63,211 bases of DNA from an uncultured Candidatus Poseidoniales archaeon (GTDB lineage: Archaea > Thermoplasmatota > Poseidoniia > Poseidoniales > CAYMED01). The stretch spans positions 1 to 63,211 of the forward strand of contig CAYMED010000015.1 in NCBI GenBank assembly GCA_964389655.1, in the 5' to 3' direction. A program made the translations under genes and the position numbers. Of the stretch, positions 48,153-59,782 are shown piece after piece. The stretch's first letter is position 1. Each line of letters begins with the position of its first letter. A model generated the notes under the pieces. It ran no database searches. It saw nothing but the letters and a program-made list of their open reading frames with translations, and had not been told where the DNA came from.

Positions 48153-49427
48153 CTAAATGTGTCGAATGAACTCAGACCTATCCGCATCAGGAGGGATGGT
48201 TGCATCAATTCCCACTTTTGCCGTAATCCCCTCAGCAGACCTTGAAGGGTCTAGACTTGATCCTCGTAAACCTGACATGATGTGCCAATCACGATCTGCC
48301 TGACTTCGCGTCTGAACCGCCCAATCTACCGCATCATGGTCCTTTACATCGACATCGTCATCGACAATTACGACTTGTTTCATAGAGGGATGTCCGCGGA
48401 AAGAGGCAGCGATTGCATCTTTTACCTGACTTTTGGTGGGCCTACGCAGTGAAATAACACCGGACAACCAACCACTTCCGCCACCTGAAAGGTGAAGGTC
48501 GGTGACTTCAGCGACCTTTTCCACTTCTCTGAGAATCATGGGGAGCCTTGGAAGGCCCATGAGTGTCTGATGTTCGGCACCCCCTGACACAAGAGCATGC
48601 AGAATGGGATTATTACGGTGCCATGTGTCATGGAATCTTATGAGCGGCTGTTTCCGTAATCTGTCTGCCGTGCCCGTAATGTCCACGTATGGACCCTCAT
48701 CCTCATCGTGACACGTGATTTCTGCTTCAAATGCCACTTCACAATCGGCAGGTACACGAATTCCATTAGAGAGGCGTACAAGCCGCAGAGGTTGACCCAA
48801 TAGATTGTGCATTAGATGTGCAGCAACTTCCATTTCATCTCGCCCAAATTCAAATGAAATCGCAGCGGCGAGTAAAATGATTGGATCCGGTCCGAGGAGC
48901 ACTGCAATTGGCGTCGAATCGCCCCTTTCCCTCCTTTCGTGGACGATCTTGTGCAAATGCCTTGGCACTAGCCGAGCAGTAACTTCATCCTTCCCTCGAA
49001 TGAGCATGCGATGAAAGGACGTGTTACGAATGCCATCGACTTCGACTTGAACAATTGCACCTGAGAGATAGGGCCCTGCGTCTATTTGGTAGGCGTGAGG
49101 AATGGGCAATGAGGTTAGATCAGTTTCTGACTTGTTTTCGCAAACTTTTGCCTCTGCACGATCTACTTCTACGATAGGGATTGCCTCCTTGGCCACTATG
49201 GCGGCTTGCAAATTCCGGACCAGCTCCAAGCCAGTCAACCCCGTCCGTTTCTCAAGAGCCACAATGGTTCCTCCATTCGACCCCACACGCCACCCGCTTG
49301 GACTATCAACTGCAGTAAACAAGAGGGGCTGACTCCCATATTTGCGGATTGATTGGCTCAATTCGAGGATAGGGCTAATTGGCTCATCAATGGTCACCGC
49401 TTCCGCCAGCGCATCTCGCAACCCCAT
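48153..49427 (-). CDS. UbiD-family prFMN decarboxylase, probably trans-anhydromevalonate-phosphate decarboxylase
   Basis: DAGPY, NTSFHRM, RLVPRHL, EGPYVDITGT, HPSMKQVVIVDDD, GSSLDPS, KVGIDAT; start refined to ATG 49427. Confidence 0.85.
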   Translation of the reverse strand: MGLRDALAEAVTIDEPISPILELSQSIRKYGSQPLLFTAVDSPSGWRVGSNGGTIVALEKRTGLTGLELVRNLQAAIVAKEAIPIVEVDRAEAKVCENKSETDLTSLPIPHAYQIDAGPYLSGAIVQVEVDGIRNTSFHRMLIRGKDEVTARLVPRHLHKIVHERRERGDSTPIAVLLGPDPIILLAAAISFEFGRDEMEVAAHLMHNLLGQPLRLVRLSNGIRVPADCEVAFEAEITCHDEDEGPYVDITGTADRLRKQPLIRFHDTWHRNNPILHALVSGGAEHQTLMGLPRLPMILREVEKVAEVTDLHLSGGGSGWLSGVISLRRPTKSQVKDAIAASFRGHPSMKQVVIVDDDVDVKDHDAVDWAVQTRSQADRDWHIMSGLRGSSLDPSRSAEGITAKVGIDATIPPDADRSEFIRHI

Positions 49428-49491
49428 TGGATAACGGGGTGTGCTGGGGGTCATGAACGTACAGGTATGAGGCTCCTTGCCTCCCGACATC

Positions 49492-49520
49492 ATGATATAG
49501 CCTCCCCAAGTCGCCGGCTT
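49492..49520 (+). promoter_or_regulatory. Putative rps12 promoter: TATA-like box + GTCGCCGGCTT element
   Basis: ATGATATAG (49492) CCTCCCCAA GTCGCCGGCTT (49510), ATG at 49535. Confidence 0.55.
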
Positions 49521-52935: not shown

Positions 52936-53943
52936 TCAGATAGATCGCTCAACTTGCAGATCAGTGAGGCGAATCAAAATATCAGTCCATCGGTTTTGAG
53001 GTAATACCTCAAGGCACTTTCGGGCTTCTTCATGAGCCTGCTTAGCACGCGCTCTTACTACTTCAATTGCCCCACAAGACTGCAATACTGCAATAGCACT
53101 TCTCAAGTCATCTGGGTCAACATCCTCTTTTACCCCAAATACCTTGGATAGGGCCAATGCTTCGCCTGAAGAAAGCATATTTTCTGCGTGGATGATCACA
53201 AGTGTTCGTTTCCCTTGAATTAAATCAGATCCTATTGGCTTTCCAGTTGCTTCCTCATCTCCTAAAAGATCAATCAAATCGTCGATGATTTGGAAGCATA
53301 ATCCCAATTGAATGCCCCATTCCTCCATTTTCTGGCATGAATTTTGATCTGCTTCTGAAATGAGCGCCCCCCCCCATCCAGCAATTCTGAATATTGAACC
53401 TGTTTTGGCCGCAATCATCTCAAGATAATCTGACTCATTTGCTTCCTCCGACTCAAAGGATACGTCCATTTGCTGGCCATCGGAGAGATGTCGCACCATT
53501 CCTGCGACAGCTCGCACAAGCGTTACTGCATGCTCTGCACGAATATGGGGCGAATCAGCAAGTGCTTCCATTGATACGGCAAACATGGCGTCTCCCGCAT
53601 TGATTGCAGTTGCTTCATCAAACGCTATATGGACAGTAGGGCGCCCTCTGCGCAATGAATCCTGGTCCATAATGTCATCATGCACAAGAGTAAATGTGTG
53701 AATCAGTTCAAGTGAGGCACCAAGGTCAATACCGGCTTCTTCGCCAGATCCAATAGCTGAAGTGATCAATGCCGGTATAAGTGCTCGAAAGCGCTTTCCA
53801 CCAGCATCGACTAGATGCCGTGTTGCTGCATAAAGACGGGGGTGGGATATTCGACCAAGGATTTCAATCATGCGTTCCTCGATGCAATTTCTGATTTCAG
53901 ATAGCTCATCGATCAAGGTTGAAAGTGCATCAGGTTGATCCAT
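52936..53943 (-). CDS. idsA: Geranylgeranyl/polyprenyl diphosphate synthase
   Basis: GGKRFR, FARM HTFTLVHDDIMD..RRG, GQQMD, KT, SARM FQIIDDLID. Confidence 0.95.
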   Translation of the reverse strand: MDQPDALSTLIDELSEIRNCIEERMIEILGRISHPRLYAATRHLVDAGGKRFRALIPALITSAIGSGEEAGIDLGASLELIHTFTLVHDDIMDQDSLRRGRPTVHIAFDEATAINAGDAMFAVSMEALADSPHIRAEHAVTLVRAVAGMVRHLSDGQQMDVSFESEEANESDYLEMIAAKTGSIFRIAGWGGALISEADQNSCQKMEEWGIQLGLCFQIIDDLIDLLGDEEATGKPIGSDLIQGKRTLVIIHAENMLSSGEALALSKVFGVKEDVDPDDLRSAIAVLQSCGAIEVVRARAKQAHEEARKCLEVLPQNRWTDILIRLTDLQVERSI

Positions 53944-55039
53944 ATTCCTCTCCCCTTAGGTAAGTGATCCATTCACGAAGGTCTCCAGTCACTAAAGGCC
54001 GAATATTTTGCAAATCGGAAATCGTAGTGCACCCTAGCAGGAACATCGTGCTACGTAGTTCATCAATGACACCTTCCAGTTCATCAACAACAGCATCGAC
54101 CGATGTATCCGCTGCAGGTAATAAGCGGCGAGCAAAACCTGCTGCGGTTGCACCAAGTGCGATGGCACGCGCCAAATCAAGGCCCGTTCGCATTCCGCCA
54201 GTGGAAATCAAATCTGGAGATTTTATTGGGGCTGCGGCAATACATGCTGCAGTAGGTATCCCCCAATCCCAAAACAATGCACCTAGGCGTGCTCGGTGCC
54301 CATCACCAGATTTTAGCGCGCGGTAGTGCTCAACAGCAGACCAAGATGTCCCGCTTAGCCCACCAACATCAATGCCTGAGACCCCAGCATCACGCAGTCT
54401 GACTATGTCGGAGGGGCGAATCCCTGCTCCAGTCTCTTTTGCGACAACAGGGACTTCATTAGCCACTTCTGTGATGGCCTTCAATGCACCTTTTGCATTA
54501 TGATCGCCTTCTGGCTGAACAATCTCCTGTAAATAATTGAGGTGCAGGCAAACCGCATCAGCACCGACCATGTCAATGGCAGTGCGAATCTCCTCTATGC
54601 CCCACCCTGCTCTGTCATGTTGTACTAGCAACTGCGGCACACCCACATTTGCAAGAATGAGAGGTATGTCATGATCTCTGACAAGTTCGTATGTCCAAGC
54701 CCATGAAGGGTCTTCAAGCGCAGGGCGCTGGCTCCCAACACCAAAAGCAACGCCCACTTTAGCAGCGGCTTCTGCTAAACGCCCATTGATTTCCGCTCCC
54801 GATTCACACCCTCCAGTCATCCCCGAGATGACAAGAGGTGCAGCAAGACTGACGCCCAATAGGCTGCTAGAAACATCGATATGGTCTTTAGAAATTTCAG
54901 GCAATGATGAGTGGGTGAAGCGGATTTGGTCCCACCAATTCTCACGGCTTGAAACGTCCTCATTTAGGCAAAGGTCGATATGGGCTCGTTTCCGCTCCTC
55001 AATCGCGGTGCGTGCCTCAGAGTCATCCATAGGTGGCAC
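53930..55039 (-). CDS. fni: Type 2 isopentenyl-diphosphate isomerase
   Basis: RKRAHI, SGMTGG, GVGSQR, HLNYLQE.VQPEG, KETG, WGIPT. Confidence 0.96.
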   Translation of the reverse strand: MPPMDDSEARTAIEERKRAHIDLCLNEDVSSRENWWDQIRFTHSSLPEISKDHIDVSSSLLGVSLAAPLVISGMTGGCESGAEINGRLAEAAAKVGVAFGVGSQRPALEDPSWAWTYELVRDHDIPLILANVGVPQLLVQHDRAGWGIEEIRTAIDMVGADAVCLHLNYLQEIVQPEGDHNAKGALKAITEVANEVPVVAKETGAGIRPSDIVRLRDAGVSGIDVGGLSGTSWSAVEHYRALKSGDGHRARLGALFWDWGIPTAACIAAAPIKSPDLISTGGMRTGLDLARAIALGATAAGFARRLLPAADTSVDAVVDELEGVIDELRSTMFLLGCTTISDLQNIRPLVTGDLREWITYLRGEEYGST

Positions 55040-55088
55040 AGGACCTCGGATGGGCTTCCCTGCTATGAACGACAGGGTTCAGCGTGTA

Positions 55089-55931
55089 TCATAGCCGATT
55101 GGGGGTGATCTGTGTTGCAGGGACTTCGGTAGCACCAGCCGCGATTTTCTGTATCCTGCCACTTTCTCTACCATTAACTAACCATACCTCAACTCCTGCA
55201 TTTGCAGCCCGAACTCCCTCGCCCAATTTTAACATGACTCCGCCCGTAACATCAACTGAGTCATCAAGCAAAGCATCTACTTTTAGGCCAGAATTCCAGA
55301 TCGGAATTAGCTCTGAATTTGGATCGTGGGGCGGTTTGTCCATCAAACCGTCTATGCCATTAAGAGCATGGATCAACTTTACTCCCTGCCCCCTATGTAT
55401 GGAAATCTCGGTTGCTAGATGGTCCCCCGAAATGATTCCCCATTTTTTTTGCCCGTCTTGATCAATTATATCCCCGCCAATGAGTCCAATTTTCCCCTGC
55501 TGCATCTGATTTAGCCAAGAAAAATCGGCGACAAAGTTCCCCTCTGCGGTGAATTTGGCGCAATTATGGGCGGCTTGGTGATGGGTTGCTAGGCCAACTT
55601 CCCCAAGTGCAGCAGTTATTTCCCTCGCCAAACGCTGCAAAGCCATTCTCACATGCGATACTCCTTCGATTTGAGATGATGTAGGCGCCCCCCATGGCGT
55701 AATTGGATCTGGTATCCAGTCCGACAATCTACCTTCGGAAAGACGGAGGTGCCTCGCCCATAAATGCCCAAAACTCCCGGCGCCATGTACCAAAATGATC
55801 TCTTGCCCAGTTTCACAAATTGCCTGGATTTCTCCTACTATGCAGGCTAAACCTTCCTCATCAATGGTCTCAAATTGATCTTTATGGGTGATTAATGCGC
55901 CACCCAATTTGAGTACAACACAAGGTAACAT
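55089..55931 (-). CDS. ipk: Isopentenyl phosphate kinase
   Basis: LKLGGALIT.K, VHGAGSFGH (IPK His), SGD, DVTGG; start refined to ATG 55931. Confidence 0.92.
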   Translation of the reverse strand: MLPCVVLKLGGALITHKDQFETIDEEGLACIVGEIQAICETGQEIILVHGAGSFGHLWARHLRLSEGRLSDWIPDPITPWGAPTSSQIEGVSHVRMALQRLAREITAALGEVGLATHHQAAHNCAKFTAEGNFVADFSWLNQMQQGKIGLIGGDIIDQDGQKKWGIISGDHLATEISIHRGQGVKLIHALNGIDGLMDKPPHDPNSELIPIWNSGLKVDALLDDSVDVTGGVMLKLGEGVRAANAGVEVWLVNGRESGRIQKIAAGATEVPATQITPNRL

Positions 55932-55991
55932 TGTTCCATCAGTGGTTGCCCGACGCGGTGGTTCGATAAGAGAACGGGGGTTCGGTGATGT

Positions 55992-56327
55992 GTGTCGAAG
56001 AGTGGCCCTGACCTCGAACTTTTCCGCCGATGGCTCCAAAATGAGATCACAAATGCACAGCAACTGGAGGATAGTGAAGAGAAGATCAAACGTTGCAACC
56101 GCTTAGATGCGGCATTATTACTTGCAATCGCATTTGACCGTGATTGGCACTCTCGACGCGAAGAGGGAGTCGCCCCAACACTCACTCGGAGTAATGTCCG
56201 AGTCGTGCAAAGTACAACCAATGCGACGCCAGTTCAACAAAGACCTGCCCCCTCTGGGCAATGTGGCTCATGTGATGCGCCTCTAGAAGATGACCTCGAC
56301 TTTTGCCCTGTTTGCGGGAAAAACTGA
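55992..56327 (+). CDS. Small protein with C-terminal Zn ribbon
   Basis: Helical N-terminus; CGSC..FCPVCG; GGTGA before GTG. Confidence 0.75.
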   Translation: MSKSGPDLELFRRWLQNEITNAQQLEDSEEKIKRCNRLDAALLLAIAFDRDWHSRREEGVAPTLTRSNVRVVQSTTNATPVQQRPAPSGQCGSCDAPLEDDLDFCPVCGKN

Positions 56328-57083: not shown

Positions 57084-58085
57084 ATGCGACGAGGCTTACA
57101 TGAGGCGAAAGAGAATATCGGTGTGTCTGAAGAGGGCGACTGTCAGAGATGTGGGGGCGAATCACAACAATCCTCTATGACAGGATATCTTCAGTGTAGT
57201 CGGTGTGGCTATGAATGGAGTGACCCTAACCATGTTTCACGGGTTTCACGACCTGAAAGGACGAGTATTGACCAAGACATGGGCAAAGTGGACGAGTTCA
57301 AGAAAGAATTGTCTGAAGGAACTTGGTCGAATGTTATGGGCGTAGATTCCAAATTGTCCGGTGAGCAAGAAGCCGGTTTGAAACGGCTTGAGTCGAAGTG
57401 GATGGACGGGATGAAAGGCCATTTTAATGCGGCAGAGGAAGAACGCAAGCCCCTAATGATTAGTTTTGATGATTCGGGGGAGGACCTCGTTGATACAACC
57501 GTAGGCACAGTTACTTTGCTCACCAATGATTTTGATGGAGGAGAGGAGATTCGTGTGGAGTACCCCGGTATTGGCACTGAATTCTACATTTTGGATGAGG
57601 AGAGTAACACAGGATGGAGAAGAGGAAGAACGTCGCAGGATACTGCCCGTAGTATTGCCTATACGATCAACAAACACAGCAAGTTTGTGCATGCATCTTC
57701 CATTGATACTCAGATTCTTTTTGAATTGAGAGACCACCGTTTAGATGTCGATTCATTGGTTCTGTTCGTGTCAGACCCAGGAGGGCAGGACATGATTGCT
57801 GAGAAGGGAGGTGTGAATCTAGATCCACGTATGGTCCATCAATTAAGTGATTACAAAATTGCTGTTGAGCTTGTGCTTGCTGATGGTGTGATTACACCTA
57901 GTGAAGATCAATTGCTGTGGGCGATGCGTGATCAGTTGGGGATTACGGATGAAGACCATGTCCGCATTGTAGTCAGTTTATTTGGCGAAGATGTGGTCAA
58001 GGAATGTGTTCAATGTGGTGCAGATGCCAAACTCTACACCGAGCATTTAGCATGGTACTGCGATGCTTGCGAGTCTTGGAACTAA
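57084..58085 (+). CDS. Hypothetical protein: N-terminal Zn ribbon, acidic central domain, TerB-like helical motif, C-terminal Zn ribbon
   Basis: CQRC..CSRC; LADGVITPSEDQLL..LGI; CVQC..WYCDAC. Confidence 0.8.
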   Translation: MRRGLHEAKENIGVSEEGDCQRCGGESQQSSMTGYLQCSRCGYEWSDPNHVSRVSRPERTSIDQDMGKVDEFKKELSEGTWSNVMGVDSKLSGEQEAGLKRLESKWMDGMKGHFNAAEEERKPLMISFDDSGEDLVDTTVGTVTLLTNDFDGGEEIRVEYPGIGTEFYILDEESNTGWRRGRTSQDTARSIAYTINKHSKFVHASSIDTQILFELRDHRLDVDSLVLFVSDPGGQDMIAEKGGVNLDPRMVHQLSDYKIAVELVLADGVITPSEDQLLWAMRDQLGITDEDHVRIVVSLFGEDVVKECVQCGADAKLYTEHLAWYCDACESWN

Positions 58086-58152: not shown

Positions 58153-59178
58153 ATGGGCAAGGATACATTGTACATCGGAATCGACCTTGGAACTTTCCGG
58201 TCAGTCCTCATCACTGATGAGGAACAAGAGGAAATTGTTCTTACTGTTGTTGGTACGCCTAAGGACAATATTGCGCGTAATTTCTTGCGCGCGGATAAAC
58301 TGTTTGGGGAAGAGGCCTTGAGGAACCGCTTGGCCCTCGATCTATATCGACCCCTTGAGCATGGTGTGATCAAAGACACATCTGAAGACCGGTCTCATAT
58401 TGCCTCATTTATTCAATACCTCATCTCGCTTGCAAACCCTGACGAATATGATCGAGTAATTGCAGTCATTGGGGCACCTGCGGAGGCATCACACATCGAC
58501 AAAACCGCTATTTTTGCAGCTGCATCTGGCGCAGTCAATTCTTGCATGATCATTTCCGAACCGTTTGCAGTTGCGTATGCACTTGATCGGATTGATAACA
58601 CGATCGTAATTGATATTGGCGCAGGAACAACTGACTTGTGCAGGGTATATGGTACCATTCCCACACCAGAAGATCAAATGCACAATCAATACGCAGGTGA
58701 CTATGTGGACAACCAAATAATTGAGCAAGTTTCACGCAAATATGCAGGTGCTCAAGTAACTAAGGACATGGCACGTAGGTGGAAGGAATCCAATGCATTT
58801 GTTGTTGGGCACGAACCAAAGGAACCTGTGATTGTCGACTTCAGTGTGGATGGAAAGGCCATGTCATTGGATATTACAGACTGCATCGCTCAGGCTTGTC
58901 AAAGTATTGTAGACCCCATTGTGGGGGGTGTCAAAGAACTCATTGCCGCCTCAAACCCCGAGTATCAGAAGGCTTTCCGACAGAACCTCATTATTGGGGG
59001 AGGGGGCAGTGGAATCGATGGAATAGGGGATATGCTCACAGCGCGCCTTAAAGATCTTGGCGATATTGAGGTATATACTGTTGAGGATTCTATCCGCTTA
59101 GGGGCATTGGGTGGTCTAAGACTCGGCCAAGAAGTTCCAGAAGAATATTGGAAGAATCTAACACTCCATGAAACCTGA
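58153..59178 (+). CDS. MamK-like actin-family ATPase
   Basis: GIDLGT (phosphate 1), [14 protein letters not shown] (phosphate 2), [10 protein letters not shown] (adenosine); MamK-type [16 protein letters not shown], NPEYQ and EVPEEYW.. terminus. Confidence 0.9.
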   Translation: [341 protein letters not shown]

Positions 59179-59188
59179 ATGATCTTAA

Positions 59189-59782
59189 TCATTCATCCTC
59201 GTGGCCTTCTGAAACGAGTTTTCCGGCACATACTGGGCACGGGTCACCTAGTGAGAGGTGTGCTGGGACGACCGCTAATATGGAGAAACAGTGTGGGCAC
59301 CGGGCTAGAACCTCATCCATGCTGACATTTAGCTGACTATTTGCACCCATATCCACACCATGGATCAGCCTTTCATCACTCACAATTCTCGATAGTCTCG
59401 TCATATGTATGGCGAAAATCACTGCAATAACTCCCATTAGAAAACCGCCGGGCTGCCCAGTTACAAGATTTGTTATTGCCCAAAGAGCATATGTGCTTGC
59501 TAAACCAAGAACTGCAAACGGAGCTAGGTCAAATGCCCACCTTGCCTTAGCACGATAGCCAAACCACCATATGGGTAGGCCGATAAAGCAGGCCGCAATT
59601 AGAGCATATGACAGGAGGCGCGCCCCCGAACCGTACAACTCAGTTGCCCACTGGGTGCATACTAGGGCCACTAATATGATCCCTAGAGCAGTTTGAGTGA
59701 GTATTCTACGATGGGCATCATCCAGCAGCGCCTGTGTTGGCGCATTGCTCCCTAGTTCGACCCACTCTTCGCTGCGATCCAT
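59189..59782 (-). CDS. 4-TM membrane protein with C-terminal Zn ribbon
   Basis: Four hydrophobic segments; CPHC..CPVC. Confidence 0.75.
   Translation of the reverse strand: MDRSEEWVELGSNAPTQALLDDAHRRILTQTALGIILVALVCTQWATELYGSGARLLSYALIAACFIGLPIWWFGYRAKARWAFDLAPFAVLGLASTYALWAITNLVTGQPGGFLMGVIAVIFAIHMTRLSRIVSDERLIHGVDMGANSQLNVSMDEVLARCPHCFSILAVVPAHLSLGDPCPVCAGKLVSEGHEDE

Follow-up and report, generated by a model that had tools for sequence, protein, structure and literature searches.

What does a MamK-like actin do in a marine archaeon that carries no magnetosome genes? The question is raised by a complete and intact open reading frame, beginning with ATG and encoding 341 aa (P0001), in the window, that is, the whole stretch of 63,211 nt that was analyzed (Table 1). 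Its homologues bear the names Poseidoniales, Poseidoniaceae, and Thalassarchaeaceae, which narrows the originally suggested Thermoplasmatota cell to the Poseidoniales (Marine Group II, MGII), and the flanking genes are archaeal housekeeping genes; on the contig, these include EF-2, proteasome, exosome, and isoprenoid genes. Window positions 48153-49493 and 52936-56063 hold a UbiD-like gene and a cluster of GGPP synthase, type 2 IPP isomerase, and isopentenyl phosphate kinase; the isoprenoid genes represent the archaeal pathway, the kinase family being assigned by Pfam and the rest by reading. A mobile origin of the actin locus was rejected because of this housekeeping context and because no plasmid match was found. 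A scan for promoters and terminators gave a result at chance level.

As had been stated from the sequence, the long open reading frames of the window, judged by reading rather than by HMM, include no mam genes and no mreC, mreD, or rodA, and the latter three were also absent from the neighborhoods of 30 actin loci. In the genome, which is 93% complete and 5.7% contaminated, tblastn searches with MamM, MamB, MamO, MamF-like, MamN, and FeoB sequences returned generic weak matches or none, and no canonical MreB, chemotaxis genes, or gas-vesicle motif were found. The genome encodes FtsZ-family genes, ParA-type ATPases, SMC, and archaellins. Beside two FtsZ genes, there is a third, divergent gene of the tubulin superfamily (about 310 aa; L192, G000:C9:6624-6881), which was also present in all five actin-negative genomes searched.

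Table 1. Features of the actin locus; positions are those of the window
Feature	Position	Strand	Basis or remark
MamK-family actin paralogue 1	58153..59178	+	Profile, PDB, AlphaFold, Foldseek, tree
Phosphate-1 motif GIDLGT, residues 8-14, D11	58174..58194	+	Sequence; invariant in 120 homologues
SEPF, connect-1, catalytic Glu E136 = MamK E143	58555..58566	+	Alignments
Phosphate-2 motif DIGAGTT, D154-T160	58612..58632	+	Sequence and 120-homologue alignment
Subdomain IIA longitudinal-contact segment N268-N278; K273 = MamK A278	58954..58986	+	Alignments
Adenosine motif GGGGSG, residues 282-287	58996..59013	+	Sequence and 120-homologue alignment
Candidate partner Up339, 333 aa from ATG at 57084 (longest ORF from 57066)	57084..58085	+	Linkage, co-deletion
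Up339 central beta/alpha domain	57501..57818	+	Fold comparison
Convergent membrane/zinc-ribbon gene	59189..59782	-	Outside module

The original prediction of an actin fold with intact phosphate-1, phosphate-2, and adenosine motifs was borne out by the sequence, by an alignment of 120 homologues, in which D11, E136, D154, and the adenosine glycines are invariant or nearly so, and by the AlphaFold model (pLDDT 91.5), the top structure match of which is the MamK filament subunit 5ljv (TM 0.89, rmsd 2.1). Every segment that had been listed as MamK-specific was found in the alignment with MamK (5jyg/5ljv), in which about 120 of 335 residues are identical, that is, about 36% by count (34-35% in Foldseek). 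The MamK profile NF040964 ranked first in NCBIfam (357.9 bits, E 5e-107), and it missed the cut-off of 400 bits, as did the MGII orthologues with at most 384 bits. The scores of the BeeR profile NF053558 (216 bits versus a cut-off of 530), of the MreB profiles (61-72 bits versus cut-offs of 293-366), and of the salactin profile NF053533 (53.8 bits versus 400) were lower, and the link to salactin is thus weak. In the PDB sequence search, MamK (E 1e-67) was followed by BeeR (2e-45) and MreB (2e-6), so that the MamK match is far beyond chance. Together with a phylogenetic placement apart from MreB, these results confirm that the protein belongs to the broad MamK family and is neither an MreB nor a kinase. 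The family had been named correctly from the sequence; what had been missed were a second paralogue, a fixed upstream partner, and the known non-magnetosome relatives of MamK. Relative to the sister species, the gene differs at 107 of 134 four-fold sites (80%) and the protein at 20% of its residues, which indicates strong purifying selection, and 209 of the 341 alignment columns are at least 95% identical in the 120 homologues, surface segments included.

In the final trees (LG+G4 and LG+C20), built without 33 rows that were long or divergent, the single salactin-like row among them, the window protein lies among MamK, BeeR-like, and planctomycete saltatorellin-like proteins, and MreB is found on a long branch. 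The clade of MamKs linked to MamM and MamO (L130) is separate from the MGII proteins in both best trees, and a tree that joins the two is not rejected (AU p 0.084). Actins from other magnetosome-type clusters (L119, L129, L143, and L139; the cluster context was checked for L119, L139, and L143) are placed elsewhere in the tree, and a tree with all magnetosome-type MamKs in one clade is rejected (AU p 4e-6). Because the magnetosome-type MamKs are scattered in this way, and because other relatives lie beside amidase, GGDEF, or chemotaxis genes, MamK has to be regarded as a broad family. The nearest groups outside MGII are bacterial proteins of KSB1 and the MamK-like proteins of other Thermoplasmatota and of ANME-2/Methanoperedens. 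The archaea-rich group has a support of 95/97 (LG+G4) and 85 (C20); the data neither establish nor reject monophyly of the archaeal sequences (p 0.31), and therefore no donor can be named. Eight sampled MGIII-type genomes from the same class yielded no match.

Several of these relatives have characteristic neighbors or extensions. In two Thermoplasmatota of family f19, the actin gene is located within a chemotaxis operon with cheA, cheC, and cheD (L068:7250-13966 and L069:5428-10660) and is followed directly 3′ by a gene for 318-341 aa; this arrangement is a candidate system for positioning chemoreceptor arrays. In a bacterial clade from Desulfobulbaceae, Nitrospira, Gammaproteobacteria, and Acidobacteria, a gene for a membrane-anchored N-acetylmuramoyl-L-alanine amidase lies directly upstream (16 loci, one cluster; L099, L113, L122, L125, L132, L135, L148, L154, L158, L161, and L163), possibly representing an actin-guided wall hydrolase. 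A double GGDEF-like gene is found upstream of the planctomycete saltatorellin-like relatives in about 20 loci (L088, L090-L098, and L100-L112). The KSB1 actins (P0122-P0139; L083:8001-10565), which of all sequences outside MGII come closest (42-48% identity), have N-terminal extensions of 190-880 aa, composed of a short coiled coil and a long proline-rich/acidic low-complexity linker. An ANME-2 gene (L087:9115-14373) is followed by a gene for a 1752-aa protein without Pfam match, near MinD/ParA and a type IV pilus/archaellum ATPase cluster.

With few exceptions, relatives that have paralogue 1 also have a second actin, MamK2, with about 45% identity, which in the present genome is encoded on another contig. 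The two paralogues form sister clades (support 100/99 with LG+G4 and 99 with LG+C20). All three families are represented in both clades, and the duplication therefore predates the radiation of the Poseidoniales. The present genome carries the paralogue-2 locus twice (G000:C4:13608-23056, L031; G000:C24:6833-14490, L032); three actin copies were nevertheless rejected, since the copy on C24 clusters with family f3 and is probably a contamination. In one single-contig genome (G003:C1:1175444-1176453), an apparent frameshift near residue 153 interrupts the orthologue, either through an assembly error or in a recent pseudogene.

Each paralogue has a gene partner of its own. The Up339 gene is located directly upstream of actin 1 in the same orientation in 30 of 30 loci, and its end is separated from the actin start by 67 nt in the window. 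The encoded protein is soluble and acidic (64 D/E, 34 K/R) and consists of a zinc ribbon, a helical region with an acidic linker, a beta/alpha domain, a TerB/ENT-like helical domain, and a second zinc ribbon, both ribbons being of the C4 type. The beta/alpha domain is folded like the protruding domain found in phage tail sheaths and in flagellin/FliD (Z 10.6, rmsd 1.6, 81 residues), a likeness of fold only. Up339 contains no recognized DNA-binding domain, and a membrane anchor is evident neither in Up339 nor in the actin. Atlas clusters for Up339 are archaeal only, and no relatives were found among the neighbors of non-MGII MamK-like genes. A complex prediction for the actin and Up339 gave a score of 0.00, which is uninformative either way. 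A small helical domain with the motif DGxxTxxE is shared by Up339 and a 158-aa gene product heading the archaellum cluster (L076:15489-15965, G000:C12), and the genome encodes at least six proteins with this domain. The convergent membrane gene downstream of the actin was rejected as a partner, since it is retained where the actin was lost and is missing beside the actin in many loci. At the second locus, a large subtilase gene precedes MamK2 in every case, and a coiled-coil gene of 380-445 aa follows it in all 13 loci that reach that far; the coiled coil weakly resembles crescentin rod domains.

The distribution of these genes is informative about their relationship. Across 201 genomes of the order, the genus profiles of actin 1 and Up339 are identical, both genes being present in 16 of 24 genera. 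The eight genera without them (73 genomes, 1.3-1.6 Mb where sizes are given) belong to one family and are of the streamlined Thalassarchaeaceae type. In two related positive genera the gene order is Tpt1-thiolase-Up339-actin-membrane gene-CoaBC, and in four negative genera it is Tpt1-thiolase-(membrane gene)-CoaBC, so that exactly Up339 and the actin were cleanly deleted. In those negative genera in which the second locus was checked, the subtilase and actin 2 were absent as well, and the coiled-coil gene was an intact open reading frame of only 132-162 aa, lacking the half that contains the most conserved stretch (residues 241-300). Neighboring hypothetical genes are retained in these genera and serve as a local control. 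The EF-2 tree shows two losses, and a single loss is not rejected (p 0.22). With one or two such events, and in genomes that went from about 1.9 Mb down to 1.4 Mb and so lost about a quarter of their length, the two loci could have disappeared together by chance, and the link between them is suggestive. One further genome (G028) was rejected as an independent loss: EF-2 and Tpt1 are also absent, and a contig ends inside the subtilase gene.

Homologues of FtsZ/tubulin, ParA, and SMC are retained where the actins were lost, and the actins are thus unlikely to be essential for division or segregation; being dispensable in streamlined lineages, the actins are not part of the core machinery for these processes. 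The same observations bear on a dynamically unstable filament of the salactin or ParM type that aids chromosome segregation, with the zinc-ribbon protein as a DNA adaptor. Salactin, the archaeal actin reported to be closest to MamK, has been linked to the segregation of DNA when ploidy is low (PMC10746226), and the two zinc ribbons of Up339 would fit an adaptor. However, the salactin match is weak, Up339 is acidic and without recognized DNA-binding domain, all 25 genomes searched have ParA-type ATPases, SMC occurs in the actin-positive as well as in the actin-negative group, and the actin and Up339 genes lie in a chromosomal housekeeping context and were lost outright in eight genera. We thus regard a segregation filament as improbable.

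Whether paralogue 1 polymerizes is a separate issue. MamK of AMB-1 forms filaments, as do diverse MamKs expressed in E. coli (PMC10653835), saltatorellin, likewise in E. coli (10.1101/817700), and BeeR (PMC11929497). With filament-forming relatives on several sides of the tree, the MGII actin very probably polymerizes, alone or together with paralogue 2. One position calls for discussion. At the position equivalent to MamK A278, 104 of 120 MGII orthologues carry Asp, the window protein and its sister Lys (K273), and paralogue 2 mostly Pro or Gln. The change of A278 to Asp yields the non-polymerizing MamK mutant of 5ljw; the interface residues were assigned from PDB titles and alignments and from the contacts known for actins. 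The prevalence of Asp, and the strict co-retention of two paralogues as divergent as 45% identity, could mean that paralogue 1 alone forms no filaments and is a monomeric ATP switch, or a cap or nucleator for MamK2, in an actin/Arp-like division of labor. Yet the window protein and its sister have Lys, Asp or Glu is common at this position throughout the family, including MamKs from magnetosome clusters, the protofilament interface is conserved at both ends in the 120 homologues, and K204, R208, and R209, which are invariant and basic in the facing subdomain, might compensate for an Asp at 273. Asp thus lowers the case for polymerization and does not remove it, and a switch or cap is quite unlikely.

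We favor a scaffold of two actins with an adaptor and a coiled-coil partner that would serve cell shape or long-axis organization, a reading drawn by analogy and reached partly by elimination, to which we give a little less than an even chance. Paralogue 1 would bind and hydrolyze ATP, as its motifs suggest, and would assemble head to tail into an actin-like filament like its filament-forming relatives, acting in one system with MamK2. Up339 would bind paralogue 1 as an adaptor or regulator, and MamK2 would have the long coiled-coil protein as its partner; gene linkage and co-loss were observed. The resulting internal scaffold would give shape or long-axis organization to cells without the MreB/peptidoglycan machinery.

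The original prediction was instead that a filament positions some cargo. In its current form, a treadmilling filament would position or partition a non-DNA cargo, for example an inclusion, a membrane patch, or a site of secreted protease, with Up339 as an acidic, MamJ-like adaptor. Positioning is the role of MamK itself, magnetotactic bacteria have adaptor genes immediately before mamK (PMC10653835), Up339 is indeed acidic, a large subtilase gene precedes MamK2, two other Thermoplasmatota have a relative inside a chemotaxis operon, and the helical domain of Up339 recurs in the gene heading the archaellum cluster. However, six or more proteins of the genome contain that domain, the genome lacks genes for magnetosomes, gas vesicles, and chemoreceptor arrays, and ParA and SMC are present either way. 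A link to archaella was rejected because archaellins are absent in three genera that keep the actin and present in one that lacks it, and the distribution of rhodopsin does not co-vary with the actin. We consider the cargo proposal unlikely. The shape-giving scaffold can also be extended into a four-part Poseidoniales cytoskeleton, in which two MamK actins co-polymerize or divide the labor, a zinc-ribbon adaptor contributes its sheath/flagellin-type domain, and an intermediate-filament-like coiled coil completes a structure that shapes or polarizes cells without MreB, its loss marking the switch to another cell plan in the streamlined genera. This extension is speculative and somewhat unlikely to hold in full.

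MamK-like actins outside magnetotactic bacteria are already known, namely saltatorellin, BeeR, and salactin, and the MGII actin differs from each of them. With MamK (5jyg, 5ljv, 5ljw) it shares the fold, the nucleotide motifs, the family segments, and an acidic gene directly upstream, whereas its profile score is below the cut-off, it falls outside the MamM/MamO-linked clade in both best trees (an exclusion not significant by AU, p 0.084), and it occurs in an archaeal chromosomal context with a fixed second paralogue. Saltatorellin, for which a role in shape has been proposed (10.1101/817700), is likewise a MamK-like actin without magnetosomes, from the non-magnetotactic Saltatorellus, and planctomycete proteins that share its C-terminal end show 39-45% identity with the window protein; saltatorellin belongs, however, to a separate clade, its bacterial host has MreB and peptidoglycan, and a GGDEF-type rather than a zinc-ribbon gene lies upstream. 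BeeR (8r2n; TM 0.82) is a MamK relative in non-magnetotactic cells, but the MGII actin lacks its disordered N-terminal extension (the first motif starts at residue 8) and the insertion after the SEPF helix, and the three-stranded tube of BeeR is not predictable for it. Salactin of Haloarchaea, also an archaeal chromosomal actin, forms a dynamic filament, as the MGII actin may do; it is much farther from the MGII actin than bacterial MamK-like proteins are, and its acidic N-terminal tail is missing in MGII. Deep-branching magnetotactic bacteria possess a network of actins and coiled coils, the 'magnetoskeleton' (PMC12748827), in which MamK, Mad28, and coiled-coil Mad proteins combine two actins with coiled-coil partners in one system. 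This is an analogy of design: no sequence link between Mad proteins and the MGII partners was found, and MGII has no magnetosomes. Mad28 is 15-17% identical to MamK, versus about 36% for the window protein, in which the EP is intact, and both MGII actins retain the phosphate-2 Asp (D154), which is replaced by Ser in Mad28.

Literature searches, the coverage of which was incomplete, revealed no relevant paper on MamK in Thermoplasmatota or MGII, on the MGII pair, or on its partners, and no actin is mentioned in the two main surveys of MGII genomes. In the surface ocean, Marine Group II archaea, which are uncultured, rank among the most abundant heterotrophs; to our knowledge, nothing is known about their cell biology. 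Taken together, the results characterize MamK as a broad family composed largely of non-magnetosome actins, one branch of which is rich in archaea, and in which magnetosome use either had more than one origin or was mixed by transfer. Most MGII have two slowly evolving relatives of MamK, each with its own partner gene, and members with small genomes lost both. The split between genera with and without these genes yields a prediction on cell shape, and a conserved actin pair with named partners provides a testable entry into the cell biology of MGII.
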